IMG/VR virus record: IMGVR_UViG_3300045988_162176
Coordinates: 64,001-128,000 of that record
Length of the DNA stretch: 64,000 nucleotides
Reading direction: 5' to 3' (one strand)
Source of the DNA: a virus
The first letter of the stretch is position 1, and every line of letters starts with the position of its first letter. Both the position numbers and the translations under genes were made by a program. The notes beneath the pieces were generated by a model. That model was not told the origin of the DNA and made no database searches. It saw only the letters and a list, made by a program, of their open reading frames with translations. Below, one piece after another: positions 18,393-61,711 of this stretch.

Positions 18393-18399
18393 TTATAAA

Positions 18400-21210: not shown

Positions 21211-21260
21211 AAAGGAATTTATATTTGCCTATTAGAAAAATAGGAGCGTCAATCTATTAA

Positions 21261-33336: not shown

Positions 33337-34584
33337 TCATCTAATCTCCACTAAATATCGAATAGTTACTTGGTCAGGACGATAGAAAATAATTTCTGGA
33401 TTGCGAAGCATTCCCTTTTCAGGAGAAGCGTAAACACAATGGCAAGGAGGATTCTTTTTCTGAAGCACATCAAAATTAAAATGATAACACTCGGAAGTAT
33501 GTTCATAAACAGTATAAGGATTTCCATAAGCCACTTCAAAAATAGCCATGAATCCAGTATTATTACTTCCTCTTGCCCAGTAAGAACCACTTACACTTGT
33601 ATAACCAATACTCTTTCGAGCTAAAGTGCTAAAATACAATCCATCGCTAAACATCGAACCTGTATAGATAGCATTTGCGGGACGAATCTTCAAACCCATT
33701 TTAAGGATATTAAAGAAATTTTGAGACCTGCTACCATGCCACATAAGTTTAGTGTTTGTAATATTATAATCTTTAATAAAAGAATTAAATGCTTTATTAG
33801 TCTCTAAATTATTAACACTCCATGCTTTTACGAATCTATCAGAATCTCGCCCAAGCATATTTTTAATTCTGGCAACTTCATCCTGAGTGACATCTTCCAT
33901 GGTAATACCCATCTTCTGCAAAATGCTTTCAGAAGCTTTAATTTCAGAATCGGTGTCGGCAATTTTTACCTTGGGCTTATAAACTTGACCAGCCATAGTA
34001 TCAAGCAAGCTTTGTTCCTCAGAAAGCTTTTTGTCGTATTCGGAAGAATCAGAAACAAGACAGTCAGAAACGCGCTTCATCTTACGAGGAACAATAATAA
34101 ACAATTCATTCAAATTCTTGTTAAATTCCTCAACAGACCAGTTTTTGTAGTTCGCTGCAATATAGTCAATCTTTTCCTGAGCAGCATCAATCATAGCCTG
34201 AGTAACAGCTTCAGCACGAACTGAATAAGCAGATTGAATAGTCTTATTAGCATAATCCCAAAGACGTTTAACAATCTCTCTAACAGATAAATTTTGAACC
34301 AAACCAAATTCATCTACCCCGTTAGACTTGTCTTCAACTTTAGAATCAGCAATAACTTCCTGCATCAAATCAGAACGGTCAACATACCCCTTCTTCAATT
34401 TAGAAGAAAGAGTAGAATTCCATTTGGACATAGGATAAGTTTTAGTCTGAGGAGCAGCACCAACACGACCATATTCAGCCGTAAAAGTATCATCTCCATT
34501 TGGACTAATTTTGTAATATTTATTATGTCCAAGGTCTCCAAAATTAGGGTCTACAAAGATTAAATATTTGGGAGTATAATCCAT
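33337..34584 (-). CDS. WGR-domain poly(ADP-ribose) polymerase-like ADP-ribosyltransferase
   Basis: N-terminal WGR-like NKYYKI...AEYGRVGA. C-terminal H-Y-E pattern LMWHGSR ... GLYFS ... NPEIIFY. Confidence 0.75.
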   Translation of the reverse strand: MDYTPKYLIFVDPNFGDLGHNKYYKISPNGDDTFTAEYGRVGAAPQTKTYPMSKWNSTLSSKLKKGYVDRSDLMQEVIADSKVEDKSNGVDEFGLVQNLSVREIVKRLWDYANKTIQSAYSVRAEAVTQAMIDAAQEKIDYIAANYKNWSVEEFNKNLNELFIIVPRKMKRVSDCLVSDSSEYDKKLSEEQSLLDTMAGQVYKPKVKIADTDSEIKASESILQKMGITMEDVTQDEVARIKNMLGRDSDRFVKAWSVNNLETNKAFNSFIKDYNITNTKLMWHGSRSQNFFNILKMGLKIRPANAIYTGSMFSDGLYFSTLARKSIGYTSVSGSYWARGSNNTGFMAIFEVAYGNPYTVYEHTSECYHFNFDVLQKKNPPCHCVYASPEKGMLRNPEIIFYRPDQVTIRYLVEIR

Positions 34585-34617
34585 AATTCCATCTCCTATA
34601 AGTAAATCTCTATGATT

Positions 34618-34646
34618 AGATTACCATAGAGATTTACTTTTGTCAA
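34618..34646 (-). promoter_or_regulatory. Sigma70-type promoter
   Basis: TTGACA (34641-34646) - 17 nt - TAATCT (34618-34623). Confidence 0.5.
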
Positions 34647-34686
34647 GGGTTTATTCAGTTATTTTTTACTAATCCAATCAGTTAAA

Positions 34687-35406
34687 TTACTGGTAGCAGA
34701 AAGTAAGATGAATCTTATAATTCTTGCTTACCTCGTCAAACTTTTTAGCATCTTCAATCGTTTCAGTAAAAACACGAAGAATCATTTCACGAACATCTTC
34801 CCAATCAAGATTACCCTTGCCACACCCAATAAAAGGCATAGCAAGATAAGAAATCTCTTCATTAATACAATACTGAGCAAGGTCTTCAATACAATGTTCA
34901 AGATTAGTCATAGTAATTGGTTCATACTTTTTATTAGCAATCATAAGTAAAAATAAATTCCGAATCCAAATAGCTTCACCAGCACAACGCTCATCAAACT
35001 TATCAGGAATCTTATCAACAATATGATAATAATTGTCAAGTCTACGAGCAGTATCACTACCCAAAGAGAGGTCAGCGGGGATACCATAACAGATATTGTA
35101 ATAAGGAGGAAGGTCGAACATATCCTTATTTACTTCTTCATACTCAACAGGATTTTCATAACTGGTATCATCGACTTCATCATCTTCATCTGCAAATTCA
35201 AGCTCACCATCATGCACCACAAGAGGACAACCACAGTTAGGACAATGCATTACCTTGGGCTTCAAAACAGAAACATAACCAGAAGTAGAAACAATCTTAC
35301 CATCTTCATCAGTAGAAGCAACTGCGGTAGTAAAATAATCCTTATCCTGAGTAGAAGTTACCTTTGGCTCATCGAACTTGTAATTGCGACTAAAAATATT
35401 AGCCAT
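34687..35406 (-). CDS. Zinc-ribbon + macro-like domain protein
   Basis: CPNCGC in the N-terminal half. The C-terminal YLAMPFIGCGKGNLDWEDV resembles a macro-domain C-terminus. Confidence 0.5.
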   Translation of the reverse strand: MANIFSRNYKFDEPKVTSTQDKDYFTTAVASTDEDGKIVSTSGYVSVLKPKVMHCPNCGCPLVVHDGELEFADEDDEVDDTSYENPVEYEEVNKDMFDLPPYYNICYGIPADLSLGSDTARRLDNYYHIVDKIPDKFDERCAGEAIWIRNLFLLMIANKKYEPITMTNLEHCIEDLAQYCINEEISYLAMPFIGCGKGNLDWEDVREMILRVFTETIEDAKKFDEVSKNYKIHLTFCYQ

Positions 35407-42385: not shown

Positions 42386-42819
42386 TTTCCATAAACCTCT
42401 TTCTTTTTATTTTCATAAAATTTATTCAATCCTACGAGGTCAGGAGCATTTGGACAAGTCTTTTCTCCCATAAATGTAGTAATCATATTAATAATTCTCT
42501 TATTTCTATGATTAAGAGGAGGAATAGAAGTGTCCTTAAAAGCAGAACAAATAAAACGAGAACAAATTTCAGGTCGTACTTCATAAATTTGGCACTTATT
42601 TTCCTTGTTCAAAAAAGGACAAATATCTTTAAAATCTTTATCTAAAGCAGTATTACGATTAATCATTTTTACTTCTGGATGCTGACCAAGATACTTTTTA
42701 ATCTTCTTTACTTCTGCATCACTTACACAAAGAATTGCAGAACAACAAGCTCCACATCCAGAACATTTACCATCAATAGTATGGTCTACTTTGTTAGCCA
42801 TCTGACTATTCATTCCCAA
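42382..42819 (-). CDS. YkgJ/UPF0153-type CxxCxxCC metal-cluster protein
   Basis: DGKCSGCGACCSA motif. Confidence 0.6.
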   Translation of the reverse strand: MGMNSQMANKVDHTIDGKCSGCGACCSAILCVSDAEVKKIKKYLGQHPEVKMINRNTALDKDFKDICPFLNKENKCQIYEVRPEICSRFICSAFKDTSIPPLNHRNKRIINMITTFMGEKTCPNAPDLVGLNKFYENKKKEVYGK

Positions 42820-43256
42820 ATTCCTCCATCAAGTTCTTCTCTTACGCGCATAAGAATCTTTCCCAACTTATTTTCTCCAACACCATTACAAACTCCCCAT
42901 GTAGTATCATGCCACCAATTTCCCTCTTCAAGATAAGCGTCACCAGTATCAAGAAGAAGTTTGGCGAGATTTTTGTTCTGAGTAAACTTTGCACTAACAA
43001 TTTCATACATTGTTTGCTCTTTAATATCTTCCCAATCTTTACGCAACTTACAATTCCTACCAGCAAGTTTTGCTTGAGCTGGATTCATGGAAATATATTT
43101 TTTACGGTCTTCATCTCTAATTTCTTTTTGTGCTTGAAACGCTGCTTCTGAATTTTGATAGGTTAAACCATTATAACTTACAGGTGCATTATAAAAATTA
43201 GAGAGAAAAGCATAAGCATCAAAAAAATCTTTAATTGCTTCCATATTATTTTCCAA
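42810..43256 (-). CDS. NADAR (DUF1768) domain protein
   Basis: FLSNFYNAPVSYNGLTYQNSEAAFQAQK and the C-terminal WGVCNGVGENKLGKILM are typical of the NADAR family. Confidence 0.75.
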   Translation of the reverse strand: MENNMEAIKDFFDAYAFLSNFYNAPVSYNGLTYQNSEAAFQAQKEIRDEDRKKYISMNPAQAKLAGRNCKLRKDWEDIKEQTMYEIVSAKFTQNKNLAKLLLDTGDAYLEEGNWWHDTTWGVCNGVGENKLGKILMRVREELDGGIWE

Positions 43257-45307: not shown

Positions 45308-46126
45308 TCATAATTTAGTCTCACTTTCTAAAAGTTCTTTCTTTAAAGAATGTGCAATCATTGTTCTTTGTACGTTTCTTAAAACTTCTGCAACAGTTTC
45401 ATCTGTTTCAAAGTGCTTATCCATTACATATTCATCTACCAAAACTTCTGCTTCTGTAATTAAAGATTCAGCCACCCTTTTAGCATCTTCAATAGGAAGT
45501 GGAGTAGTTTTGTAGCTAATTAACAACTCAGGGTCTTTAGGAATTAAAATCTTTTCATAAGGTTCGTCTTCTGCTACATATCTTTTGATAAAATCTGATA
45601 GCCTTGCAATATGATGGAAATCTTTCAATCCATATCCATAATTGTCAATGTCAAACTCATTATGAGGGGCTCTATGAAACATCTGTTTATACTTAGTCTT
45701 CATATTACCATACATTGTCAGCACAGCTTTGTGAGGACAATAATGGGCAATAGCCTCTCTGTTTTTAATAATAGCTCCAAGCCACATGCCAGCGTATTCT
45801 GGATTTAGCTCAAAATATTTAGTAAACAATGTTTCTGTGAAATTAATATTTTGTTTTAAATAACTGTTGAACATTAAACGAATATCTTTGACTTCAAGCT
45901 TTCCTCCATCTTCATCTCGATGATATTCTTTACTAACCCAATCTTTAGAATCAACGATGTCATCAAAATGAGGAAGTACAATTGCTTTTGTATCAACGTC
46001 AGAATGTTCGGTAGCCATACCATAATTATTACTACCGTAAACAAACACTCCAACAATATTATATCCAAGTTCTTTCAAAAATTCATAATCAGAATGAACT
46101 CTATTATTAACCTTTTCCAAATTCAT
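45308..46126 (-). CDS. Pol-beta superfamily nucleotidyltransferase (possibly RlaP-like)
   Basis: VFVYGSNNYGMATEHSDVDTKAIV (GS...D.D pattern). Confidence 0.5.
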   Translation of the reverse strand: MNLEKVNNRVHSDYEFLKELGYNIVGVFVYGSNNYGMATEHSDVDTKAIVLPHFDDIVDSKDWVSKEYHRDEDGGKLEVKDIRLMFNSYLKQNINFTETLFTKYFELNPEYAGMWLGAIIKNREAIAHYCPHKAVLTMYGNMKTKYKQMFHRAPHNEFDIDNYGYGLKDFHHIARLSDFIKRYVAEDEPYEKILIPKDPELLISYKTTPLPIEDAKRVAESLITEAEVLVDEYVMDKHFETDETVAEVLRNVQRTMIAHSLKKELLESETKL

Positions 46127-46969: not shown

Positions 46970-48898
46970 TTATCCTTTCATAATAGAATCTGCATCTAAA
47001 ACATTATACCAACGTCTTAAATTAAATTCCTTTTTCCTAATTTTTTGATAACTACTTACAGGAGTATAAAAACCTACTACTCTTGCATATTGGTCAGCCA
47101 CAGGTTTTCCACAAATAGGACAGGTTTGAGTTCCAATAAAAGAATGTTTATCTTCACAAACATTAATCTTAGTCGTAAAAGCGAAATAAATTACACCTTT
47201 AGAAGCAACATAATTAAGCATGTCCCATGCACTTTCTTTGGTAGCAAAACGATTTTCAATGTCAATATGAGCAATACATCCGCCGCCGCATTTTTCATCA
47301 AGTACACTACCTAAACGACACTTCTCTTTAATAGTGCATTGTTCAGTTAATGGAATCCATTGATTTGAGTAAATAAAATATTTATCTTGCTCAAACAAAA
47401 GATTATCTGCGGTACAAATTACACCAGCGCAATTTTCCCGTGGAATAGATTCAACATTAAAAGAAAAATCACATTCAAAACTATCTTTTACCTCATTGAT
47501 AGTATCAAGAATCTGGCAAGCAAATTCTAATCCTTCTTCTGTATAATATTTATTACCAAACTCATCAGTATTAATTAAACCAAAAGAATCAATAACCTCA
47601 TACATTCCAAGAATACCAATAGTACAATATTGCTTGTCAAGTTCAACCGCCCCTTCTTGATAATTAGGAAGCAGACCTTTTTCTATATTGCGCTCTAAAA
47701 TATGACGCATACTAGTTAATGCCTTGCAATCCAAAAGAACACGGTCTTTAAGAAGTTCAATATATTTCTTTTTATTAAATTTGGTCTCATATGCAATACG
47801 CATAAGATTAATTGTACTTACACGACAAGAACCAACAGACAATGCTGTACCACCAATAGAATTAACAAAAGCATCAAGCTTTTGAGTATCTGAAAGCAAA
47901 CGACAGCAGTTTGAAAGAACCCCAACATTATCAGACACGAAAAAATTAGAATCAGACCATTTAATATTATGATAACAAGCCCATCGAGCAGTTTCTTCAT
48001 CTTCAAATTTACCATCTTTATAGAGAAGAGAATAAGTTAAAACGGGGAAAGTAAACATATTTTCACTGCGAATATCACTTACCACATCCATAAACAAACG
48101 CTGGCACTTCATAATTTCTTCAATTTGGTCGATAGCGAAAGACCCGTCTGGAAATTCCAATCCACCAAACAAAGATTCAAGATAAGGACGGTCAAAAATA
48201 CTTACATTTGTAAAAGCACACTGGTCAATTCTAAGGAATGGCTGATTTAATCTGTAAACGAATTTCTGAAAATATTGTCTTAAATAAGTCTCTGGGTCTT
48301 TAAAGTAATGCCCATTCTTTATATCCATTTTCCAGAAATAATAAGCCCAAATAATTACATTTGGGAGGCCAACGGCCCGAGACTAACGGTTACTGAGGAA
48401 TGAAACAAACTCAATAACATCATCAAAATATGTATCCAAGTGCTTAGGAGGCTGGTTGTTATACCCTCCAAGGAAAAACAATCCTTCTCTTGCCAAACGA
48501 GTTAAATCATTCGCCCAGCAATAAGGAAAATAACTTGCAGTGGCAGAATCGTTAAGATAAAATCCTTTGCTAAACTCCTATTCTAACCAAGCCTTAGCGG
48601 TACGAAGCCCCCATTTTTTCTTAATTTCAAGGAAAATTTTATTTAAACCAAAAAGCTTATCTTCGCTTTTCCCTTTTTCAGTCATAAAAGAACGAATATC
48701 TCTATGACTAGCATTTGCATTAGGGTCGATGGTAGCATCTGCCATTGTGCTTTGATTTACGAATTTATCTAAGAATTCTGAAAAATCTAACTAGCTAGAA
48801 TGAACCCCATTAATATATTCAAAATCTTCACCATATTTCTTTTTTAAGTCTTCAAGACATCTTTCAAAATCTTTTGTTAAACGAAGTGAAATGTCCAT
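46970..48898 (-). CDS. nrdD: Anaerobic ribonucleoside-triphosphate reductase (three in-frame TAGs)
   Basis: C-terminal Zn ribbon CEDKH...CPICG and glycyl-radical motif ARVVGFYTPV. The N-terminal 190 codons join via TAGs at 48383, 48578 and 48791. RBS GGGAGG lies before ATG 48898. Confidence 0.85.
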
Positions 48899-48916
48899 AT
48901 AAAATTTTCCTCCCTT

Positions 48917-49688: not shown

Positions 49689-50108
49689 TTACTCTCCCTC
49701 TACAGCTTTATCAGATTTCAGAGCATTTGCTCTCGCTGCTTCAATAGTGTTATTTTCATCCTTAATAGACAAAATTTTCTTCATCTTATTAAAAGCTTCT
49801 AAAATATATTTCAAAGAACCAGATAAACATACTCCCAAAGTTGCCACTGTTGAAATAACAGTGCTATATTCAGCAGGAATAGGAAGATTGTTTTTATTTG
49901 CCCAAGGAATAATTAAAGAGGTAGAAAGTACAAGTAGCATTGTACCACCAGCAAAAGCTAAAATTTTATAAAGGCTATTTATTAATCTTTGTTTTTCAAA
50001 AGTTTCTCCTGCGATTTTAATATTATAATATAAAGAGAAACTAACATTAGAAAGATATGCCATGCCAAAAATAGAAAATCCCACTAAAGCCGCTAAAAGA
50101 TTTTCCAA
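49689..50108 (-). CDS. Hypothetical multi-pass membrane protein
   Basis: ORF track; 3-4 hydrophobic helices. Confidence 0.55.
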   Translation of the reverse strand: MENLLAALVGFSIFGMAYLSNVSFSLYYNIKIAGETFEKQRLINSLYKILAFAGGTMLLVLSTSLIIPWANKNNLPIPAEYSTVISTVATLGVCLSGSLKYILEAFNKMKKILSIKDENNTIEAARANALKSDKAVEGE

Positions 50109-50150
50109 GGCTAATTTCCAAAAATCCTACATAACTTTCTCCTTTAAGTT

Positions 50151-50633
50151 TTAATTACCAGAACTTCCAAATCCACCAGCACCACGCTCAGTATCAGGAA
50201 GTTCTTCTACTTGTTCAAAAGTAGTGGGAAGCACAGGAAGAATCATAGCTTGAGCAATCCTATCCCCGTGTCTAATAATTTGTGTTTCAGTGCTATCATT
50301 ATGCAAAGCAACAATCCATTCACCACGATAGTCTGCATCAATCACGCCTACGCAATTTGCAGGACGAAGCCCCTGTTTAGTAGCCAAACCACTACGAGCA
50401 AAAACTGCACCCCAATATCCGACAGGAATTGCAGTTGCGATACCAGTCTTTACCTTTACAGTCTCATGAGGACGAATCTTGATTCCTGCAACATCTTTCT
50501 GAACATCCCAGCTATAATAAGTGTCATCTGGACAATCCGCATAAAGGTCAAAACAAGCATCAGTTTCATGCGCTTTAACAGGCATCTTAGCTGTCTTAGA
50601 CAGCAACTTAATCTTTACATCCATATTTGTCAA
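50151..50633 (-). CDS. dut: dUTP diphosphatase
   Basis: Motifs DACFDLYA, ARSGLA, GVIDADYRGE, RIAQ, ERGAGGFGSSG. Confidence 0.9.
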   Translation of the reverse strand: MTNMDVKIKLLSKTAKMPVKAHETDACFDLYADCPDDTYYSWDVQKDVAGIKIRPHETVKVKTGIATAIPVGYWGAVFARSGLATKQGLRPANCVGVIDADYRGEWIVALHNDSTETQIIRHGDRIAQAMILPVLPTTFEQVEELPDTERGAGGFGSSGN

Positions 50634-50650
50634 TCCTTTTTTGTCTAATT

Positions 50651-50914
50651 TTAATTTGTTTCTGTTTCGTCTTCTACTTCTTCTACTAATTTATCAATGT
50701 TTTCTTTGAGATATTTAGTTACATTTGCATAGCCTTTGTCATTACAATCTTCACTAAAGCCTCTAAACTTTGTTCTTGCTGGAAATGCTTCTTTTACATT
50801 GCCTTCATTATCAAAATCAACACAAATACACCAACCAAATAAATGAAGAATACTATTAATAAACCAGAGTAAACCAGATTCACGAAACTCTTTCCATGTT
50901 TTTCTTTCAATCAT
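50651..50914 (-). CDS. Hypothetical protein
   Basis: ORF track. Confidence 0.55.
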   Translation of the reverse strand: MIERKTWKEFRESGLLWFINSILHLFGWCICVDFDNEGNVKEAFPARTKFRGFSEDCNDKGYANVTKYLKENIDKLVEEVEDETETN

Positions 50915-50949
50915 ATTCTTATTTCCTTGTATATAAAAATGGTGGAAAG

Positions 50950-52308
50950 TTACCCTTCCACCATAGAGTTTTTAAAACGCTTTAAATTGTGTAGGGCTTT
51001 TGTAATTTCAGAATATTTGTAGCAAAACTGTTTCTTCAGCAAGAAATCGTTTTCTTGCCCAAGATATTTGGTCTTTGTTCTGCCCTTTAATACTTTAGGA
51101 AGTTTATCCATCCAAAGCATTGCTTCTTTTTTATCATTCCAAAAGTCTACACATTCCGCATTTCCTTTAACTAAAATTTTATCAATAAGCTCTTTATAGA
51201 GATTAAGATATTCATGAACAGTATTATAATATTCCATAATTAAATCTCTATATGCTTCAGGACATTTTGCCAAAAAGTCATCAAATCTATCTTCGTGAAT
51301 AGCATTAATAACAGCGTTAGGAGAAATATTTTTAGATAATGCTTTATGCATTAAAACATAATCCGATGTTTTGACTTTGCATCTAAAATGATTTTTATGT
51401 CTATCAACCATATCAACTACCCAACCTTCTTTTTCAGAAGAAAGATAATTATCAGTATCAGCTAAAATGCTAAATAAAGTAGCATTATAATACCATTGAG
51501 TCATTTTAGAATCATATTCCTCAGCCATATCACTAAGGATATCAAAAGAAACTTCCTTACCATCCTTAACATCTCTTGCCGCAAGTAAATATAATCCTTC
51601 TTGAGATTCATTATATTTAACAACAATAGGATTTTTTGGAGAAATATATTCAAAAATAAAAGTATAATCAGGATAATCCTTAATTAATTCTTTCTGCCCA
51701 TCAGATAAGAGCTTATAACCCTCAGCAAGTCTCCAAGATTCAACAGGGTCTAATGCCTGAGAACCAGAACCTAAAATTCTGTCTTCCTCTGCAATATATC
51801 TGTATTGCTGATAAGAACCATCAAGCTTATTAGTAATAAAAACTGAATGAGCAAAATTATATTTAGACCTAATATTTTTAGGAGACCAATCACCATCATC
51901 CTCACCATAGTTCTTAAACTTTGCCAAAGATGCAAGAGCAATTTCATCGTTCTTTAAATCAAAGACACAAGAACGACATTCTCTATAAAGACCATCATAT
52001 AATTCAAAGAAAGAGCCTAAATCATAATCATCAGATAATTCAATAAAACCCTTGTACTTAAAAAGCACATAATGGTCATAACAAGTAATCTGAAGAGGGT
52101 CAAAAATCTTATTTAACTTTTCATTAAGTTTAGGAGTAATATTCCCCCATACTTCAAGAACTCTGTCAAGCCAATCATTAAAATTATAATTCTCAGGACA
52201 AGGTTCATTGTTAAGGAGAGTATAAGACTGGATATACTTTCTTTTAACAGTCATAACATATTCATAAAGAGGATGCCAAAGAAACTCTTTTTGAAAACGA
52301 AAATTCAT
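50950..52308 (-). CDS. RNA ligase (T4 Rnl1-like)
   Basis: Nucleotidyltransferase motif I TNKLDGS; length and adjacency to a polynucleotide-kinase-like gene. Confidence 0.6.
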   Translation of the reverse strand: MNFRFQKEFLWHPLYEYVMTVKRKYIQSYTLLNNEPCPENYNFNDWLDRVLEVWGNITPKLNEKLNKIFDPLQITCYDHYVLFKYKGFIELSDDYDLGSFFELYDGLYRECRSCVFDLKNDEIALASLAKFKNYGEDDGDWSPKNIRSKYNFAHSVFITNKLDGSYQQYRYIAEEDRILGSGSQALDPVESWRLAEGYKLLSDGQKELIKDYPDYTFIFEYISPKNPIVVKYNESQEGLYLLAARDVKDGKEVSFDILSDMAEEYDSKMTQWYYNATLFSILADTDNYLSSEKEGWVVDMVDRHKNHFRCKVKTSDYVLMHKALSKNISPNAVINAIHEDRFDDFLAKCPEAYRDLIMEYYNTVHEYLNLYKELIDKILVKGNAECVDFWNDKKEAMLWMDKLPKVLKGRTKTKYLGQENDFLLKKQFCYKYSEITKALHNLKRFKNSMVEG

Positions 52309-52344
52309 CTTAAACTCTCCTTTACTAATTATTTATCTTCTAAA

Positions 52345-53325
52345 TTATTCTTCAGAAATTCCACTTGCAATTTTATCACATTCATTAAACAAGAAAAGCT
52401 TATCAAGATTTTCTTTTCCCATAACCTTTTCCCATTTAGCTTTAGACTTTTCAGTTTCAAGAAAGAATGGGAGCATATGGAAATTAACATAAAACAGACA
52501 TTTTAAAATATCATTCATATTAGTAAATCCAATGCAATCCAGATTCGCTAAGAGGTCATATGTCCCTACATTATGATGACTATAATATCTATAATCACCA
52601 GAACCATCTTCTTTGGGCTGTCCAGTAGTTAACTTGCCTAAATCATGAATCTGTGCGGCTCTATAAAGAACCTTATCGTCAGTTCTCTTAGCAACTTCCT
52701 CAGCACAAATCCTGCAATGCTCATCTAAAGTATACTTATGATGATGAGTCTTTTGGTCAAAACCTTTCATCAAGCTCATAATATAGTCATCATCAGTAGT
52801 CCAATTAGACTGAGGCACAATTACTTCAAACTGATTAAAATTCCAACCAATTAAATTAATTGTATCAAAACCTTCCTCATAAAAAGGAATTTCAAACTTA
52901 CCAATCTGTCTATCAATAACTTCTTCGGGAACTGTACGAGCCCTTGCTCTATTCTGTCTTTTGCAAACAGCAATAGGAGTAGTCATAACATAAGCAACTT
53001 TAGTGACATTTTCCTTATTGCGAACAATATCCAACAAGCTCTTACGAGATTTAACATTAATATTAGTTGCATCGACAATGATATTCATTTTATCAACGCA
53101 ATTATTAATACGGCGACGAACTTCTTTAAAGACCTCATCATTATGAGTTTGGTCATTTACATCTCCAAAAACAGTTTCACGAATTTCATCCGACGAAACA
53201 ATCATTGTGGGCTGACCCATTTTAGTCAACATATCTTTAAGATTCTGAGCAAGAGTAGATTTGCCACTTGCAACAACTCCAATCATCATCATAAAATTCG
53301 TATGTTCCATTTTTGTTCTCCTCAC
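52345..53325 (-). CDS. P-loop polynucleotide kinase-like domain fused to an HD phosphohydrolase domain
   Basis: Walker A GVVASGKST in the N-terminal half and HD signature AAQIHDLGK in the C-terminal half. Confidence 0.6.
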   Translation of the reverse strand: MRRTKMEHTNFMMMIGVVASGKSTLAQNLKDMLTKMGQPTMIVSSDEIRETVFGDVNDQTHNDEVFKEVRRRINNCVDKMNIIVDATNINVKSRKSLLDIVRNKENVTKVAYVMTTPIAVCKRQNRARARTVPEEVIDRQIGKFEIPFYEEGFDTINLIGWNFNQFEVIVPQSNWTTDDDYIMSLMKGFDQKTHHHKYTLDEHCRICAEEVAKRTDDKVLYRAAQIHDLGKLTTGQPKEDGSGDYRYYSHHNVGTYDLLANLDCIGFTNMNDILKCLFYVNFHMLPFFLETEKSKAKWEKVMGKENLDKLFLFNECDKIASGISEE

Positions 53326-53768
53326 TTCATTTTAGCAAGAATATTATCAACTTTTTCGTTGAATTCTTTTACCAGCTTTTCTTTATCAGTATCAGGTCTT
53401 GTTTGTCCCTCAACAGGAATTAAATCTCCTGCCCAGAACAGCCACTTAGGATTAGTTTCATCTTCTGCAAATTGAACAAGACTATTATAATCAGCAGTCT
53501 GTCTTTCCTTCTTCAAAGGGTCAAACTCAACTGTAAAAATATCATTTTTGTGTTCAGTAACCCAATTCCTATAATCTTCTCTCATTTGTTTCCAATCTGG
53601 ATACGAAATAATTCGATTGTAATCTAAAGTTACTTTTTCACCCTCCCATGAAGTAATGGGATTAGTAGTGATAGCATTCATTCTTTTAACAAAAGTAATA
53701 GCACTTTCTTTTGTTAAACCTTTTTTAGTGAGCTTCTTTACAGCCGCTCTACGTTCTTCTCGATTCAT
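53322..53768 (-). CDS. Hypothetical protein
   Basis: ORF track. Confidence 0.6.
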   Translation of the reverse strand: MNREERRAAVKKLTKKGLTKESAITFVKRMNAITTNPITSWEGEKVTLDYNRIISYPDWKQMREDYRNWVTEHKNDIFTVEFDPLKKERQTADYNSLVQFAEDETNPKWLFWAGDLIPVEGQTRPDTDKEKLVKEFNEKVDNILAKMK

Positions 53769-53791
53769 AGTTACTCCTTTGAATCATCTAT

Positions 53792-53820
53792 ATAATAACA
53801 GAAATAAACGAAGTTGTCAA
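53792..53820 (-). promoter_or_regulatory. Sigma70-type promoter
   Basis: TTGACA (53815-53820) - 17 nt - TATTAT (53792-53797). Confidence 0.6.
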
Positions 53821-53834
53821 GAGGATAATAAAAA

Positions 53835-56303
53835 TTATTCCTCTTGCACTTCATCTTTTTCTTTCCAATCTTTTAGTTGCCTAATTAAAGCTCTACGCTC
53901 TTCGTCTTCTTTCCTATGAAGAATATTATACTATTCTCTAAGCTACCTATATTCCTATTTCAAGAATTCAGGTAAAAATGTTCTTTTAGTTGAAACGAAA
54001 TTTGTATCAATAGAACGTCTTAAAGCCTTAGTTTGAGCTACAAGTACACACAGCTTTTTAGCTCTGGTTAACAAAGTATAAATCTGTTGCTGACAAAGCA
54101 TCATTGGAGGAGTGCTATAATCTATTACCCCAATAATTACAGGACAACCAGAACCTTGATATTTATGCGTGGTACAAGCGTATCCTAAAATCAAATGCTC
54201 TTTAACTTCTTTGTGCTTTAAAATAATTGGAGCATCGCCCAAATCAAAATCAACAATTGCATTTTCATAATCAATACTTGTAACTACGCCAGTCCATCCA
54301 TTATACATAGCTGTTTGTGCTCCACTTGTATCAAAAACTTTATAATTGTTTTTAATACACATTACTTTATCGCCTTCTTGAATCCAAAAAGACCTGTCAT
54401 TTCCAGAAGCATCTTTCATCTTTTGGACATAAATTCTTGGACGAGATTCATTTAAATCAACAGGGTTAATTAATTTCTGAATGTCAAGATTTAAATTGTG
54501 AACACAAGCATCTCCACGTTCTTTGACAGGAGAAATAATTTGAATCTTTTCAATATCTCCGTTTACAAGAGGACTATTAAAATATTTCTCAAAGTAAGCA
54601 ATGGTATCTTTTCTATCATCATCTTTTTCATTTCGAATATCAAGTACCATATCTTGAAGGTCTCCACGAGTTTCAATGCCCTCATAATCAGTGTCTTGAT
54701 ATAATTGAATACCATTTCTTACATTGTAAGCTGTAGTTAAAATACCTGAAGCCTTTGCTTGTCTATGAACTTCTTTTAATTCAACAGTAGGAATCTCCTT
54801 GCTGTTAATCATATCCGCTGCTAAATTGAGGGAACCAATAGATTCAAGCTGTCCCATATCGCCAAGCATTAAAAGCTTACTACCTGTAGGAATTGCTCTA
54901 ATTAAGTCAAGAAAAATCTCTCCCCCCACCATACTAACTTCATCTAAAATAATGATATCGTAAGGTAATGGATTATCTTCTCCATAAGAAAAACCACAAC
55001 CACCAGTATATCCAAGAAGCCTGTGAATGGTAAATCCCTCTTTACCAGTAACCTCTTGTAATCTTGCCGCCGCTTTACCACTTAAAGCACATTGAGCAAA
55101 AGTATATTCATCAAGGACAGACAAAATACCTGTAACTAACGAACTTTTACCAGAACCCGCTAAACCAGAAATTACGCAAACTTGTTTTTCAATTCCCAAT
55201 TTAATACCATCAATCTGCTCTTGAGTGAATTGAAAGCCTTGTTTTGTTTCAGCCTTTTTAATCTTTTCTTCAAAATCATTAGCAACAAAATAATTGTTGC
55301 CTTGAAGCAATCTTTTAAGATGATAAGCAATATCTTTTTCAAGATTCCAAAAGCTCATTAAATAAACTCTTCGACCTGATTTGGTATCACCTTCTTCAAC
55401 ACGAATTAATTCTTCATCTTGAAGCTCTTTTATAGCTTTACCAACATTATTTACAAGATTGCCATCTTCATCTTCTACTGTTAAACTTTGTTTTCCACCA
55501 AGGTCTTCATACAAAGAGCCCATAAGTTCACCAGCAGACACCCAAGAATGACCTTCTTCACCCTGAGCATCAAGATACCATAAAATATAAGATTTAATTC
55601 TTTTCGTATCATAAGTCTTATATCCACTTCTCAAGGCTACTTTATCAGCGGTAAAAAATCCTACTCCCTTAATATCTTTTACTAACTGATAAGGATTGTT
55701 TTTTACGACATCAATTACTTTTTGTGGAGCTTTATATTTTTCAATTAGTTTAGAAATAAAGTTCGGGGAAAAACCAACCTTATCAAGCTCTAAATATACA
55801 GTAGACATATCTTTACTGGCTTCAAAACGCTCAATAATACAGTTGGAAATATAATCTCCAATACCTTTTGCTTTCTTCAAAGTTTCTATATCATGGTCAG
55901 CAATAGCTTGTAATGGGTCCTCACACACAGCAAATAATTCATCCATCTGACCTTCTGACAAAAAGGTTCTTAAGAAAGCCCTTTGATTCTTCTGATTAGA
56001 AAAATCAATATCTTTATTATAATAAACCAATTGATACTGAACACCGTATTTAGGATGCTCAACTTCTTTGCCTAATAATACATAGGCGGAATTGGGGTCA
56101 ATTCCATCGGTATACTCTCCTGTAAAAGTAACCTCACCATAAACACTCATAGTAGGTGAACCTTGTTCTACCTCAAGAATATTCCAAGAAACTATTCCCC
56201 AATTTTTGCCATCTGACCCAATTCCAGTACTCGGATAGAGGGTCTTAGAATGAGACGCTTTTATCTTTATAAATTTTTCTTCGGTATCAACATTCATCGT
56301 CAA
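53835..56303 (-). CDS. RecD-like SF1B helicase (C-terminal extension through three TAGs)
   Basis: Walker A GLAGSGKSS, Walker B IIILDEVSM, TTHKYQGSG, YTLLTRAKK. After TAG 53955 the frame stays open for 40 more codons (TAGs 53943 and 53931) to TAA 53835. Confidence 0.75.
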
Positions 56304-57711
56304 CCCTCTCTACATCTATTCTGTCAGAAATCATTTCAAGGTCTCCATTATCATCAATACCTTTAATCAACTGAACAGAATGTTTATACAAACTATCTTT
56401 ATACTGTCTTGGGACGAAGTTTTCTCCTCTCCTAAAACCAGTAACAAGAAGTTTAGTTCCACGCTGGAACCAAGATTTCTCAAGTACAGTTTTTGTTCCA
56501 TCATCATTCATTTGAGAAATCTGTCTATTATAAAAGTTAAATTGACCTTTATAAAACTTTATATCACAAACTCCATCAGGAGTCAATAGTGTAACTGTAT
56601 TTCTATTAGTGTCTTTATCAAGAACCGTACCACAAATTCTTTTAAGAACAAAACGAGCCTTCTCTTGGTCATGCCAATAATATTTGTAGGCCACTTCTGG
56701 CTCTTCTGGTAAATTCTCAAAAGGTACTATATTGTATTTCTCCTTGTTTACATGAGCAAGTTCATGTTCATGATAATACATACAAAGAGAATCCATTTCC
56801 CACTTAGAAAGACTTCCAGATGCTTTTTCATCCCACACAGCTTTAAACTTTCCTTCATTCACAGCTTCAAGCATCTTAGGGTCACTTAAGACATTATCTT
56901 TAAAATCTACCATAAGTTTATTAAAAACTCGGTCTAAGCTACCTCTTTTAACAACTCTTTGACCATCATCTCCCCAATCATAATCTTTTTTATCAACCAT
57001 ATCGTTGAGGAAATATTTTTCAAAATAAGGCCATGCAAATTTGTTTTCAAGTACATAATAAGCAGTACTTGCACTTTTACCTATTTGTTTATAAAAGAAT
57101 TTCTTCTGGAAAACGTAATTTCTAAATCTATATAATCTTAATTCGAACTTCTTTTGATTTTCAGTTAACAAATCAAGATTGACTAAATCTTCGATATTAG
57201 AGATGTTAAGAGACTTAACAGGACTTGAGATAAATCTAATAAAGTCTTCCATAATAGCTCTTCTATCTTTTTTCTCAAGATTATCAAAACACCGCGCCTT
57301 GATAAGAGAAATCATAGCCGTATCACCAAACTTATTTTCTTTAGATTCAGATTTGTATTTCTGCATCTTCTCGTAAAAATCCCACATCGAAGAATAAGTT
57401 TGATTATCAATAATAGCTTTTGCAATAGAAGTTCCAATACCTTGAATTGGTTTTAAACCATAAACAATTTCATTTTTCTCAACGTCAGGGTGGAAACCAA
57501 ATCTAACACGGTTTACGTCAGGTAATGCTACTGTAACACCTTCTTTTTTGATATTACCAATAGCTTTACTAATTTTACCATAGTTGGTATTTCCATCTTC
57601 ACCGCCAGAATCAGAAATCAAATTAGCAGTATTCCAATAAATAACAGGATAATGATAAGCAAGATTGGCTTCTTGCAAACCAACGATTGAATAGGCTAAT
57701 GTATGTGCTTT
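56287..57711 (-). CDS. dnaE: DNA polymerase III alpha (DnaE-type), exon 3
   Basis: Begins ..KAHTLAYSIVGLQEANLAYHYP (the DnaE ..NKSHAAAY..AY.KAHYP block). The 5' boundary is approximate. Confidence 0.7.
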   Translation of the reverse strand, partial: KAHTLAYSIVGLQEANLAYHYPVIYWNTANLISDSGGEDGNTNYGKISKAIGNIKKEGVTVALPDVNRVRFGFHPDVEKNEIVYGLKPIQGIGTSIAKAIIDNQTYSSMWDFYEKMQKYKSESKENKFGDTAMISLIKARCFDNLEKKDRRAIMEDFIRFISSPVKSLNISNIEDLVNLDLLTENQKKFELRLYRFRNYVFQKKFFYKQIGKSASTAYYVLENKFAWPYFEKYFLNDMVDKKDYDWGDDGQRVVKRGSLDRVFNKLMVDFKDNVLSDPKMLEAVNEGKFKAVWDEKASGSLSKWEMDSLCMYYHEHELAHVNKEKYNIVPFENLPEEPEVAYKYYWHDQEKARFVLKRICGTVLDKDTNRNTVTLLTPDGVCDIKFYKGQFNFYNRQISQMNDDGTKTVLEKSWFQRGTKLLVTGFRRGENFVPRQYKDSLYKHSVQLIKGIDDNGDLEMISDRIDVERVDDEC

Positions 57712-58920
57712 TATTAAAATTAAAACTGACTATTTTTTACGGATTTTCTGTGTCTAAGTTTTGGCCTACTTAGCATCCGCAAGCTGTTTCCAAGAGCGTA
57801 TCAATAGCTCCCGTACTCTTGGTCTAACCCAAGATAGTCGATACATCATTTTCAAAACAAATTAAAACTTTTTTCTATTAGTTGTTAAAGGATATTTATA
57901 ATCCTTATTATAATAAGATGCTCCGCTATTAATTTTTTTAATGGTACTATAACTTTTTTGATATTTTTCGGCAATCTCGGTAGTCTTCAAATTGCTATTC
58001 ATTAAATCTTCTTGAACAGGTTTTACCCATGAGTTGAAATTATGCAATCTTGAATTTCCTCTAATAGACAAAGGATATTGTAACTCATCATTCTTCCAAA
58101 TTTTACCATTATTAATCATTGAAAGCATCCGAACAGATTTAATATTCCATTTCTTTGCTAATTCTGTATATGTTAATTTCCCTTCTTGTAATTCTCTTTG
58201 AATTTCTTTTTGCTCTTGACGAGTGAACATATCAGAATGCCCATCATGTATATAATCATGTAATGGATAAGTTAAATCTCCTCTCTTAAAATTTAATCCC
58301 ACGTTAATATTAGTAAGAAGACTATCAGATAATTTAGGAGAATATTTTTCTCTTATTTCTTTCATTGGAATAGCTTCAATTAACATTTGCTGAATATCTT
58401 TAATTTCTTCCATCGTGAAAATTTTACTTAAAGCTACTTTTTGCTCAAATGTTAACTTTTCTTTTTTTGCTCCATTTTGCCGACCAAAATCGGTATTGTA
58501 GCCTTTGCTCCTATTAGTAGAATCATAGAAAGAAATATAAAATCGCTCTCTTTCGTCTACATATTCTTGACTTTCTTCTTCTGGAATTTCTTCTATAATT
58601 TCTTTTGAGAAATTATCCCAACCATATTTTCGAATGGCGTAATACAAATGTAAAATATATTCATGAGCTTTGGGATTAAAAGCACAAGATTTATGATTTC
58701 TCATACGAGCTTCAAAATTATTTGTTTGCCCAATATAAACTTTTTGATTCTTTAAATTAGTAATTTTATATATAACCATGGATTCCTCCTTTCGGTAGTA
58801 ATTTGTTTTGATTTGACACGAGATTTTACCCTCGTTAGCTAATTTCTAAGATTGCCAATCCTTAAAAGAAATTAACCCCGTTGATGAAACGGTTAAGCTT
58901 GTGAGCGCCACAACAACGCA
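57712..58920 (-). mobile_element. Intron 2 of dnaE (self-splicing, group I suspected) carrying a GIY-YIG gene
   Basis: Separates ..NRGYGFN from KAHTLAY... GC-richer structured flanks at 57712-57861 and 58780-58920. Boundaries are approximate. Confidence 0.6.
57862..58779 (-). CDS. GIY-YIG homing endonuclease
   Basis: VIYKITNLKNQKVYIGQTNNFEARMRNH; own RBS GAAAGGAGGAATCC before the ATG. Confidence 0.85.
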   Translation of the reverse strand: MVIYKITNLKNQKVYIGQTNNFEARMRNHKSCAFNPKAHEYILHLYYAIRKYGWDNFSKEIIEEIPEEESQEYVDERERFYISFYDSTNRSKGYNTDFGRQNGAKKEKLTFEQKVALSKIFTMEEIKDIQQMLIEAIPMKEIREKYSPKLSDSLLTNINVGLNFKRGDLTYPLHDYIHDGHSDMFTRQEQKEIQRELQEGKLTYTELAKKWNIKSVRMLSMINNGKIWKNDELQYPLSIRGNSRLHNFNSWVKPVQEDLMNSNLKTTEIAEKYQKSYSTIKKINSGASYYNKDYKYPLTTNRKKF

Positions 58921-59090
58921 TTAAAACCATAGCCTCTATTCATCGAAATTAATATATCCCATACATAATGGCACAATTTAGAAGAAAGATGTTTTTCTTC
59001 TATATTTTTGTAAAATTCTTGTTGCAGTTCAACATAAGCTTTAGGATTCTTTTTCAGTTTTGTTATCACAGAGCTTTTTATCTCTGCTTC
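58921..59090 (-). CDS. dnaE: DNA polymerase III alpha (DnaE-type), exon 2
   Basis: Hand translation ..KLKKNPKAYVELQQEFYKNIEEKHLSSKLCHYVWDILISMNRGYGFN. An in-frame TAA at 59091-59093 limits the 5' end. Confidence 0.6.
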
Positions 59091-59296
59091 TTACAATTTC
59101 TTGTAAGCTCGGCGTACATTATTAACTCTAATGAGTTAAAGGACACTCTTGGATGGATTATATTTATTCACCATCTACGCTCTACGATACTTAACAACCT
59201 TTCGCAATTTGTTAAGTTATCTCGGTATTTCCATTTTAAAGGGTCCACCGATTTTGCCCTTTTCATTTTACTTGTCACCAAGTAAACGGCCCAAAA
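59091..59296 (-). mobile_element. Intron 1 of dnaE (ORF-less, ~200 nt)
   Basis: Lies between ..WADKLRKSIA(TAA) and exon 2. The DnaE block ADxLRRAMGKKK..GYGFNKSH is only restored by removing it. Boundaries are approximate. Confidence 0.5.
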
Positions 59297-61711
59297 TTAA
59301 GCGATACTTTTCCTAAGCTTATCAGCCCACAGCAAATCAAAACCACCAATTTCAGGGTCTTGAACTGCCATCATAAAGTCTTCTTGGTTAGGTAACAAAC
59401 CATAACTCTTCTTAGCATATTTACAAACGACTTCTTGTTCATGTTTAGTCAAACCATAATCATCCATCTCTTTATACCAAAGAGTAATATCTTTCTTATA
59501 ACGGCCAAAACGTTCAAGAGGTGTTTCTGCCCGTGGAGAAGGAGCCATAAGTCTCATTACTGAGTTCAAAGCAGATAAATCCACTAAACTTTCAGGTTTA
59601 CCTATTGCAACAGCTTGATATCCTGTTTGTTTTTCCATTTGGAAGAATGACATAACTTTATGTTCATTTAGCATTTTCCAAATTTCGGGATTATTTCTTT
59701 CTATTTTATAAACACCCAAATATTTTTCATAAGTAGACTTTAAATCACCTTGCCATTCAAGCCTACCATCTTCCATAAGAAGATTCATACAAACGTGTTC
59801 TTTTTGAAGAGCGTCAATAGAAAGCAAATCCCATTTAATAAGAGATACTTTTTCGTCAGCGTGTAAGTCAAATTGAGTAATAATATCTCCACTTGTTGTC
59901 TTCATTAAAGCAGCATGGTCTACAACATCTGTCGCTGAAAGAACTACACCACCAGCATGAGAACCGACACCACTTACTAACCCTTCAATATTTTGAGCAA
60001 CTTCCCAAACATCAGGATACTCATTAGTCATTAAGTTAACAAACTCTTTATCAGGACGTAGGTTGTTTTCTTCATCACCATAAAAGCATTGCTTTAAAGT
60101 AAATTGAATACCACGCTCCTGACCAATATGCGAACTTAACATCTGTCCAATTTCAGGTGGATAGCTTAAGCCACGACAAGCAGTTTGAATTGCAACTTTG
60201 GCTTTCATCGTAGAAAGGGTTTGAACTTTCATAACACGACGATTTCCTGCTCTCTGGTCATCTCCACAATACTTGCGTTGCAAATAATGAATAACATCAT
60301 CACGGTAAGCATTCTCGAAATCTACGTCGATATCTAACGGGCTAACACGTTGAGGATTAAGAAAGCGCCAATGTTTCGTTGGGACTTCTTCTCTTAAAGG
60401 ATTAACCTGAGTAATACCCAAAATATACAGAAGAATAAATCCCAAACCAGAACCACGAGAAGGACCAACTAAAGAACCACAAGCCCAACACGCATTTACT
60501 AAGTCACGAGTCTGTAGCAAATAAGCAGACCAATGAGCATGGTTAGCTTCTGAACTTGCTTTAATGGATTCAAGGCAAGTTTGAATTGCATCATAAGTTT
60601 CTTTATTTGCTAATTCATCAGAATCTTTTTCAAGACGCTTTACAATCTCTCTAACAAGATGTCTATCAGCGTTGTAGTCTGAATTAAAGAACCATTCCAA
60701 CATAGGAATATCTTTGAAGTATTTTTTAGACAATTCCGAATCAGGCTCAGTCAAATCGTCTGGCTCATAAGGAATTTCCAAATTAGCAAACAAAGTATAT
60801 TCTTGAACCATGTCATAAATTAACATGGTATTATCTAAACCTTTTTGCACGACTTCTGGCGTCAAAAATTCATCCATATAAGAATGAATTTCTTCTTCTG
60901 ACATCATATAAGTTGTGGCATAAAATTCTCCAACCTCACGTTCTTTACCACTATCTTCATTAGATTTAAGAAAAGCTTCATGTACTTTTCTATCTTCTCT
61001 TTTGGGATAGTGACTGTCAGTGGTAATAATATATGGAATATCAAGTTCAGAAGACAATTCTACTAAAGCTTGATTTACAATAATTTGTTCTTCGCTCTTT
61101 GATGGTTGTAATTCCAAAAAGAAATTACCATGTCCAAAACATTTATCAAGTCTTTTTAACCACTTTTTAACACCCGTGTAATCAGGCTGTAAAGGATTTT
61201 GTCTATAAGAATCCAAAATTAATTTTGGACAACGACCACCAAGACAAGCAGTTGAACCAATAATATGACCTCTATCAGATTCAACAACTTCAAACAAATC
61301 TTCATAATAAGTTGGAGTACGAATATTAACATAAGTAAAGGAATTATCAATCCATGCTCTTGTACTTAATTCTCTTATTTGCTTATGTCCAATAGCATCT
61401 TTAGCCAACAAAATGAAGTGATAAAAAATATATTCTTTATCTTCTTCAATGCTTTTTCGATTGCAAAGATAAATTTCATTACCTAAAATAAGTTTATAAT
61501 CTTTCCACTTATCAGGATTTTTCTTTCGCAAATCGTCTATTTGAGTTAATGCTTCAACGTGTGCGGCAATACAGTCATGGTCTGTAATAGCAACACCTTT
61601 ATGACCAAGCTCCTAAGTATATGTGAGAAGACCCTTGACAGTGTTAGTGCTGTCAAGGAAACCTCTCGTATTGGAGCCTATGTCTGTGTGATTATGTACA
61701 CCTACAAACAC
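59297..61711 (-). CDS. dnaE: DNA polymerase III alpha (DnaE-type), exon 1 (PHP + polymerase core)
   Basis: GTG 61711 behind AAGGAGAG. PHP motif VFVGVHNHTD...AITDHD joined through TAG 61613-61615 to the ORF-track ORF. Confidence 0.8.

Follow-up and report, generated by a model that had tools for sequence, protein, structure and literature searches.

A predicted heal-and-seal RNA repair cassette and tRNA-like introns in an uncultured jumbo phage, with a possible role for the phage ligase in joining tRNA exons

The locus and its setting

The subject of this analysis is a pair of adjacent genes in a 64-kb stretch of DNA (64,000 nucleotides; positions 64,001 to 128,000 of IMG/VR virus record IMGVR_UViG_3300045988_162176), hereafter the window, which is part of the ~215-kb genome of an uncultured jumbo phage. 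The two genes are co-oriented on the minus strand and separated by 36 nt: the upstream gene encodes a P-loop kinase fused to an HD domain (52345-53310) and the downstream gene an RNA ligase of the Rnl1 family (50950-52308). The window also holds a tRNA island (17.6-29.7 kb, minus strand) in which two tRNA genes are interrupted in the anticodon loop by insertions that themselves resemble tRNAs. An earlier sequence-only reading had combined such elements into a possible phage tRNA splicing and repair toolkit, and every open reading frame (ORF) that it named is present at the position assigned to it, on the minus strand.

About 15 relatives, ~95% identical to the window and all from one IMG/VR sample, were available for comparison. 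No near-identical DNA match to 50000-54000 was found among GenBank phages. Homologues of the phage polymerase and of a CYTH-family protein point to a host among the Clostridia or Bacilli. The minus strand of the window has 90-odd ORFs that are 80 aa or longer, and the Pfam scan on which several statements below depend covered ~70 of these.

The RNA ligase

The product of the downstream gene (452 aa) is identified by Pfam, PHROG, motifs and fold as an Rnl1-family ATP-dependent RNA (tRNA) ligase. It matches PF09511 (RNA_lig_T4_1; E 7e-13, 49.3 bits against a cutoff of 28.3) and phrog_562 (E 5e-33), a family that carries the PHROG label 'tail fiber protein attachment catalyst'. Motif I, KLDGS, is encoded at 51814-51828 and supplies the lysine nucleophile, K161, while motif V, KVK, is encoded at 51370-51378. 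Residues K161, D163 and G164 of the KxDG element and E294, G295, W296, V297, K311 and K313 of motifs IV and V are unchanged in 22 homologues that are 38-86% identical; statements on residue invariance in the kinase-HD protein likewise refer to 22 homologues.

A search of the Protein Data Bank (PDB) with the single ligase sequence gave no match, and the nearest relative of known structure was found by a structure-based search. With an AlphaFold model of the ligase (pLDDT 91), Foldseek returned T4 Rnl1 as the top match (2c5u, 5tt6 and 9do4; E 1e-15 to 7e-14), followed by the ligase domains of fungal Trl1 (9qw7, 6n67 and 8rbj). The match to T4 Rnl1 extends over ~400 aligned columns out of 375 residues and therefore includes the C-terminal domain, which is all-helical in the window protein. 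Its score against the NCBIfam equivalog TIGR02308 (57.5 bits) lies far under the cutoff of 242. The ligase is a divergent member of the Rnl1/Trl1 clade and not an orthologue of T4 RnlA. It is predicted to seal breaks with 3'-OH and 5'-phosphate ends in tRNA anticodon loops. Neither RtcB nor Rnl2 turned up among the ~70 window ORFs scanned against Pfam.

The kinase-HD protein

The upstream ORF does extend to 53325, as had been read from the sequence, but translation probably starts at the ATG at 53310 rather than at the GTG at 53325: the ATG is preceded by a GGAG ribosome-binding site and yields a product of 321 aa, the length of a homologue (P0001). Pfam, PDB profile and Foldseek matches and a set of invariant residues identify this product as an end-healing enzyme composed of a polynucleotide 5'-kinase (N-terminal, ~52846-53310, residues 1-160) and an HD phosphoesterase (C-terminal, ~52345-52773, residues 185-326), all on the minus strand.

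The kinase part matches AAA_33 (E 1e-20) and contains the P-loop GVVASGKST (53254-53280) and the sequence SSDEIR (53179-53196). Residues G16, S20, G21, K22, S23, T24, S44, S45, D46 and R49 are invariant or nearly so (S23 and T24 in at least 90%). A profile of the kinase-HD family searched against the PDB retrieved the kinase domain of Clostridium thermocellum Pnkp (E 1.4e-25), and a structure model (pLDDT 92) compared by Foldseek with 4gp6 gave a TMt of 0.73, an rmsd of 2-2.6 Å and 28-29% identity. TIGR04075 (bacter_Pnkp) is matched in part (E 1e-18), and phrog_6931 matches the kinase part only, at the C-terminal end of that profile.

The HD part of the window protein alone scores 17.3 bits on Pfam HD, below the cutoff of 22; the homologue from locus L017 reaches 26.9 bits, and many homologues carry PF01966. 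The sequence HDLGK is encoded at 52633-52647, and the metal-binding set H196, H203, H227, D228, H250, H283 and D317 is unchanged in the homologues. Against the PDB, the family profile of this part retrieved the HD domain of the class II tRNA nucleotidyltransferase of A. aeolicus (E 2e-8). In the CCA-adding enzyme of E. coli, the HD domain acts both as a 2',3'-cyclic phosphodiesterase and as a phosphatase, which fits a role of the HD part in healing 3' ends. No match to a HAD (DxDxT) 3'-phosphatase was found in the kinase-HD protein, the C-terminal domain of which is HD. Profile and structure classification thus place both proteins in the families claimed for them from the sequence, the one among RNA ligases on the strength of its KLDGS motif, PF09511, phrog_562 and its fold, and the other among end-healing enzymes.

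The cassette across phages

To place the pair in a wider context, 66 distant loci were gathered with the ligase alignment (ligase identity 27-55%, also given as 31-55%). A homologue of the kinase-HD protein lies within ~1 kb of the ligase, on either side, in 64 of the 66, and in ~20 of them the order is ligase, Pol-beta nucleotidyltransferase, kinase-HD. More than 30 loci have a homologue of the Pol-beta enzyme of the window (38-64% identity) at a distance of 0.25-5 kb from the ligase, and a Thg1 gene lies 1.5-3.3 kb from the cassette in three (L017, L113 and L138), with the gene order in L017 being Thg1, a small ORF without assigned function, an Rnl2-type ligase, an Rnl1-type ligase and Pnk-HD. 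In the protein database, homologues of the ligase and of the kinase-HD protein share contigs, and the pair is annotated in ~40 cultured Bacillus phages.

These comparisons demonstrate to which family each domain belongs, that its catalytic residues are kept, and that the genes for the ligase, the kinase-HD protein, the Pol-beta nucleotidyltransferase and Thg1 stay in tight synteny; the clustering of the four in distant phages bears out the notion of a repair toolkit. The ligase and the kinase-HD protein very probably form a conserved heal-and-seal RNA repair cassette, which is a known kind of system. The architecture in which the kinase precedes the HD domain has been little studied, yet it is widespread and tightly linked to Rnl1.

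Interrupted tRNA genes and their introns

The sequence-only reading had also spoken of interrupted tRNA genes, and two are present. Searches with Rfam and with ARAGORN, the latter with introns allowed, revealed two well-formed tRNAs in the window with ~59-nt insertions in the anticodon loop. The tRNA-Ile(UAU) gene (17955-18090, minus strand; Rfam tRNA 51.8 bits, with a 62-nt insertion) consists of exons at 18054-18090 and 17955-17994 separated, between nt 36 and 37, by a 59-nt intron at 17995-18053. This intron forms 7 of 7 acceptor and 5 of 5 T-stem pairs and ends in the tail ACCA, and its removal gives the mature loop CUUAUAA. The tRNA-Gly(UCC) gene (25498-25631, minus strand) consists of exons at 25595-25631 and 25498-25536 with a 58-nt intron at 25537-25594, also between nt 36 and 37; here the intron alone scores 41.6 bits on the Rfam tRNA model. 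The two precursors (134-136 nt) are, as read from their sequences, candidate substrates of the ligase.

The sister genomes carry one to four such introns each, ~12 families in total, with presence or absence varying between genomes. They lie in tRNAs for Gln, Pro, Gly, Lys, Ile, Thr and Glu, and their insertion sites range between 32/33 and 36/37. Removal of the intron in silico and comparison with intronless sister alleles gave agreement at 75 of 75 positions for Gln(UUG), 76 of 76 for Gly(UCC), 74 of 74 for Thr(UGU) and 73 of 75 for Glu(UUC); for Gly(UCC), the spliced sister allele matches the intronless allele of L024 at 76 of 76 positions and the spliced window allele at 75 of 76. The existence of alleles with and without the intron fixes the borders to the nucleotide. 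Every intron starts with the first base of a 7-bp acceptor-like stem and ends with a discriminator base followed by CCA (in a few introns by CAA or CCG), with a T arm (loop of the TTCAAGT or TTCGAAT type) stacked on the acceptor-like stem. A single register gives 7 of 7 and 5 of 5 pairs together with a canonical 7-nt mature loop across the ~12 families. In a set of sequences pre-selected for full pairing by this register search, the stems covary: in 10 of the 12 pairs both partners have changed, and the share of paired cells is 100%, as opposed to 37-51% in slid controls. The intron is a tRNA-like minihelix, with its own position +1 at one end and its own N-CCA at the other, and these border-defined introns are the new part of the analysis.

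The tRNA-Ile(UAU) gene carries an intron in 16 of 16 genomes, where the interrupted form is the only one and occurs in three different tRNA bodies. Distant tRNA islands were reached through the PARP gene at two loci, one of which has an intron, and the tRNA-Gly of a phage with a ligase of only 46% identity has a homologous intron at the same site; a search for distant islands through the polyprenyl synthetase gene gave nothing useful. Among the ~95% identical genomes (L019-L048 compared with the window), the island is a mosaic in which tRNA bodies, anticodon stems and introns have been swapped, and the intron GTTTTAG...CTAAAAC-ACCA was found in two different tRNA-Ile bodies. Together, the mosaicism and the shared intron suggest either mobility of the intron or recombination between tRNA genes.

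Other assignments were considered for these and similar sequences. The anticodons that ARAGORN read as UCA ('SeC', or opal suppressor) or Trp(CCA) are ruled out by the intronless Gly(UCC) alleles, and the border rule leads to Ile(UAU). A group I origin of the 58-59-nt insertions is ruled out by their size and by the lack of any Rfam match. No bulge-helix-bulge was found in the minimum free energy fold, where the intron closes on its own 7-bp stem. Three further ARAGORN 'introns' (21130-21309, 24068-24186 and 19144-19216) break the border rule, having 3-6 of 7 acceptor pairs.

Several additional features of the island were recorded. The tRNA-like gene at 24068-24186 (minus strand, 119 nt) is well formed in its acceptor and T arms and ends in CCA, with a ~53-nt region in place of the anticodon loop; a hairpin in this region is missing from the 92-nt version of the gene in L043, and by the intron rule it makes 3-4 of 7 pairs. 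A tRNA-like fragment at 18325-18393 (minus strand) combines the acceptor-like GTGCCGT/ACGGTGC with a GGGGTTCGAATCCCC T arm and lacks normal D and anticodon arms; Rfam finds only a short match to the end of tmRNA there. A tRNA of the amber-suppressor type (anticodon CUA) lies at 17679-17749 (minus strand), and its homologue in the sister genomes L019, L024, L032 and L033 contains an anticodon-loop insertion of ~200-220 nt that may be a group I intron. Between 17918 and 22314 on the minus strand, tRNA genes are preceded by a recurrent motif, GTAGAC-N-CTTACAGCAA (14 matches with at most one mismatch versus 5.8 expected; for example at 17918-17927, 18172-18181, 18254-18263, 18524-18533, 21681-21690 and 22305-22314), with an inverted partner (TAGACNC...GNGTCTA) just before the tRNA 5' end; the motif may be a promoter or a processing element.

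A proposed route of intron removal

Since the intron begins and ends where a mature tRNA mimic does, its removal by tRNA end-processing enzymes is the simplest route. Cleavage by RNase P or RNase Z yields a 3'-OH and a 5'-phosphate, and both the RNase Z of T. maritima and the RNase BN of E. coli have been reported to cut after CCA. We propose a model whereby host RNase P would cut 5' of intron position +1, the 5' splice site, leaving a 3'-OH on the 5' exon, and a tRNA 3'-end endonuclease of the RNase Z/BN type would cut after the intron CCA, so that the 3' exon would start with a 5'-phosphate. The phage ligase would then seal the nick between 3'-OH and 5'-phosphate in the anticodon loop, using ATP and Lys161. 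No second RNA ligase was seen among the scanned ORFs of the window, which makes this one the natural candidate for the joining of exons; anticodon-loop nicks in tRNA are what T4 Rnl1 is specialised for, and RtcB-type ligases are not known to join 3'-OH and 5'-phosphate ends. The kinase domain would place a 5'-phosphate onto 5'-OH RNA ends and the HD domain would convert 2',3'-cyclic phosphate or 3'-phosphate ends to 3'-OH, so that the kinase-HD protein would be required only where a cut leaves a 5'-OH or a cyclic phosphate.

The substrates of the cassette, as we infer them, would be of two kinds: tRNAs cut by host anticodon nucleases, as in T4, and, in this lineage, the phage's own tRNA-Ile(UAU), tRNA-Gly(UCC) and other tRNAs after intron removal. 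In the literature library that was searched, we found no description of the excision of tRNA-like introns by tRNA end-processing enzymes, nor of a link between such introns and a phage ligase. The explanation as a whole, a repair cassette with both kinds of substrate, we consider slightly more probable than not. That the pair joins the exons of these introns comes near to an even call, on the doubtful side. The full sequence of events, in which mobile tRNA-mimic introns would be cut out by RNase P and a post-CCA endonuclease and the exons rejoined by the Rnl1-type ligase, with the help of Pnk-HD if healing is needed, is put forward tentatively, as somewhat less probable than not.

Comparison with known systems

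The pair resembles T4 Pnkp and Rnl1 in the catalytic motifs and the fold of the ligase, which has the helical C-terminal domain of Rnl1 as well, in a P-loop 5'-kinase of the same clade, and in the logic of healing followed by sealing at breaks in the anticodon loop. It differs in that the phosphatase of T4 Pnkp is of the DxDxT (HAD) type whereas the window protein has an HD metal-dependent phosphoesterase, and in that the ligase is only ~21% identical to T4 Rnl1 and has an additional, helical N-terminal region of ~70 aa. T4 itself lacks interrupted tRNA genes, while the window phage carries them.

A second relative is the HD-Pnk of Runella slithyformis, studied by Munir and Shuman and reportedly a bacterial end-healing enzyme that is often encoded beside a ligase. 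As in the window protein, an HD 2',3'-phosphoesterase and a 5'-kinase are present on one polypeptide, the gene of which is linked to that of an ATP-dependent ligase; in the Runella enzyme, however, the HD domain is N-terminal, while here the kinase is N-terminal and the HD domain C-terminal, and unlike that of Runella HD-Pnk, the partner here is an RNA ligase of the Rnl1 type. The pair is an architectural variant that has neither the T4 Pnkp and Rnl1 nor the Runella HD-Pnk architecture. HD-Pnk is mentioned in PMC6097658.

Trl1 of fungi and plants is similar in its ligase domain (the second-best structural match), in a kinase of the same clade and in the joining of exons in the anticodon loop that is proposed here. 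In Trl1 the ligase, kinase and cyclic phosphodiesterase domains form one protein, whereas the window domains are divided between two polypeptides; no match to a 2H cyclic phosphodiesterase or to Tpt1 was found among the scanned ORFs of the 64 kb seen. The introns differ as well, those of the window being tRNA-like, free of a bulge-helix-bulge and located at sites 32/33-36/37 rather than 37/38.

'Enigmatic' tRNA introns have been described in Lak megaphages (Devoto et al. 2019, PMC6784885) and in alternatively coded jumbo phages (PMC13037316, a 2026 survey). Both reports noted introns that 'could encode another tRNA', and neither offered a mechanism or a link to a ligase. Those introns are like the ones described here in their anticodon-loop site, in a tRNA-like element that ends at the 3' splice site and in their variable presence. 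The Lak introns differ in having a 5' hairpin and an A-rich leader of ~28 nt, while the window introns consist of the tRNA-like element only. Like the window phage, Lak megaphages encode an RNA ligase, annotated as Rnl2-type, which the authors linked only to repair (PMC6784885).

A catalogue of jumbo-phage RNA-repair sets by Iyer, Burroughs and Aravind (PMC7824862) describes gene sets that share with the window an ATP-grasp RNA ligase, a polynucleotide kinase, a phosphoesterase, a ligase-associated Pol-beta enzyme and a Thg1-type enzyme, as well as a Ro/TROVE protein with a tRNA-like RNA partner and Macro, NADAR and PARP genes; HD-type end-healing phosphatases are called rare there. The sets are treated in that work solely as a defence against host RNases, not as a means of tRNA-intron maturation.

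Alternative explanations

The strongest competitor of the proposal that the cassette also joins exons is that it serves counter-defence alone, resealing tRNAs of host or phage that have been cut by PrrC, RloC or colicin-type anticodon nucleases, while the introns are handled by other means such as host RtcB or an unseen phage enzyme. For this explanation, which we regard as rather doubtful though substantial, there is the established precedent of T4 Pnkp and Rnl1, and the healing domains suit the 2',3'-cyclic phosphate and 5'-OH ends left by anticodon nucleases, not the products of RNase P and RNase Z. On the other side, RtcB is not known to join ends of the RNase P/Z type, and a ligase would be needed at least for tRNA-Ile(UAU), which is interrupted in all 16 genomes; no other ligase was seen among the scanned window ORFs, and the introns occupy the anticodon loop, exactly where Rnl1 acts. 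Comparative surveys class such sets as RNA repair (PMC7824862), and the cassette is distributed over many phages without nearby tRNA-like introns and over cultured Bacillus phages.

That distribution is also the first of several points that weigh against a splicing role. The cassette is common where the adjoining tRNA arrays lack such introns (L129, L143 and L161), it is present in Bacillus phage KLEB27-3, in 122 kb of which no tRNA was found, and in Bacillus phage Sophrita, which has the pair, no tRNA was found in a 41-kb region; its occurrence in intron-free phages means that splicing is not its general function, which is repair. The toolkit for splicing proposed from the sequence is plausible to the extent that the window has two intron-bearing tRNA genes that need exon ligation, and calls for correction to the extent that the cassette is not specific to splicing. 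If the cuts are of the RNase P/Z type, the ligase alone would suffice and the kinase-HD protein would not be needed for splicing, and a further RNA ligase may be encoded elsewhere in the ~215-kb genome, of which 64 kb were seen. In Firmicutes, CCA reportedly inhibits RNase Z, so that an enzyme of this type is only a tentative candidate for the cut at the 3' splice site. Some intron tails read ACAA or ACCG instead of NCCA, one distant intron possibly ends at C75, and the ~28-nt leader of the Lak introns implies that RNase P cannot define their 5' splice site.

A different possibility is that the interrupted tRNA genes are dead, having received a small tRNA-like mobile element that is not spliced, in which case the co-occurrence with a ligase would be meaningless. 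The presence/absence polymorphism at ~95% identity does resemble that of mobile DNA, and the CCA tails of some introns are imperfect. Nevertheless, the exons are intact and show compensatory changes, the intron stems covary, the insertions occur nowhere but in the anticodon loop, where a canonical 7-nt loop is regained in every case, tRNA-Ile(UAU) exists solely in the interrupted form in three tRNA bodies, and the Gly intron has been retained in a much more distant phage, all of which makes this explanation very improbable.

We consider it equally improbable that the two proteins act on substrates other than tRNA, in which case the kinase-HD protein would serve nucleotide metabolism or the repair of DNA ends, and the ligase the attachment of tail fibres. 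The neighbours of the pair in the window are genes of nucleotide and DNA metabolism (dUTPase, NrdD, ThyX and a RecD2-like helicase), the PHROG label of the ligase family names tail-fibre attachment, a second activity reported for T4 Rnl1, and Runella HD-Pnk acts on DNA ends too. Against these stand the SSDxxR signature of polynucleotide kinases and the nearest structures, which are RNA repair kinases; all catalytic residues of the ligase have been kept, and the recurrent neighbours in other phages are Thg1, Rnl2 and the ligase-associated nucleotidyltransferase.

Other RNA-repair-type genes in the window

The Pol-beta-fold nucleotidyltransferase (45308-46126, minus strand), which is RlaP-like by gene context, was correctly recognised from the sequence: it matches phrog_388 (E 2e-13), although the match in Pfam is weak (20.9 bits against a cutoff of 21). 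The same is true of the Thg1-like 3'-5' nucleotidyltransferase (TLP) at 31276-32100 (minus strand), with matches to PF04446 (E 9e-28) and phrog_4717 (E 3e-75). Just downstream of it, at 30291-30818 (minus strand), is a cysteine (dual-specificity) phosphatase-like protein with a below-threshold match to PF00782 (E 5e-6) that could be an RNA 5'-phosphatase partnering the 3'-5' polymerase. The CYTH-family protein within the tRNA island (19318-19833, minus strand) had been counted as part of the toolkit; the ORF has no direct match to a hidden Markov model and its identity is upheld through its homologues (36-45% identity), which carry PF01928 or are named CYTH by their sources, but nothing ties it to the system.

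A probable further member of the RNA repair set is a Ro/TROVE-like RNA-binding protein of 588 aa with a vWA domain (DUF2828 and DUF7788; 4030-5796, minus strand), which was identified by Pfam (PF11443, E 7e-32; PF25043, E 3e-33; VWA_2) and PHROG (phrog_850, 'RNA-binding protein', E 1e-117) and which is a putative relative of the TROVE proteins. The tRNA island also contains a YrlA-like (Y-RNA-like) RNA at 21268-21366 (minus strand; Rfam RF02553, 39.8 bits, below the Rfam gathering score of 69, E 2e-7 locally) with a permuted tRNA-like module composed of T arm, acceptor and D arm. It is this RNA that had been taken for a permuted tRNA gene, and it is not a ligation substrate; the intron-bearing tRNA-Thr that ARAGORN places at 21130-21309 is a miscall of the same element. 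The sequences of the RNA and of the Ro/TROVE-like protein suggest a phage-encoded Ro-Y RNA particle.

Genes related to NAD and ADP-ribose (26255-26728, 33337-35406 and 42810-43256, minus strand) encode a PARP catalytic domain with WGR, two Macro-domain proteins and NADAR. An NAD-dependent DNA ligase and a weak match to an Acb2/Tad1-hairpin at 16159-16524 are present in the window too.

Two further genes show interruptions. The gene for DNA polymerase III alpha (56287-61531, minus strand) is split into one ORF at 59297-61531 and another at 56287-57678, and a GIY-YIG endonuclease ORF (57862-58779) separates the two. In Bacillus phage KLEB27-3 the gene is divided likewise, the gap being occupied by an HNH endonuclease; the split is likely to be an intron or a homing-endonuclease insertion. 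In the NrdD ORF (46970-48328, minus strand) the Pfam model is matched only from position 129, and the frame extends ~195 codons upstream (46970-48916) if three in-frame TAG codons are read through, for which local TAG suppression, a split gene or an intron are possible explanations. Of 71 long frames in the window, 6 use TAG, which makes it the rarest stop; no convincing signal of TAG or TGA recoding was found in the window.

Significance

By itself, the cassette is another case of phage tRNA repair, and its value is raised by the intron context. The tRNA-shaped introns of phages have twice been reported without explanation; their borders are now found to coincide with the ends of an internal tRNA mimic, which gives a model that can be tested at the bench. 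If the model is true, it would define a third, protein-dependent pathway of tRNA splicing, distinct from group I self-splicing and from the archaeal and eukaryal endonuclease route, and hence a new route of RNA splicing for phages and bacteria. The 'enigmatic' tRNA introns of Lak phages and of other jumbo phages would find their explanation in it, and it would suggest a way in which phages could time or gate their supply of tRNAs, as for example that of the always-interrupted tRNA-Ile(UAU). Phage RNA ligases would, finally, gain a constitutive housekeeping role, with a physiological substrate beyond the repair of damage.

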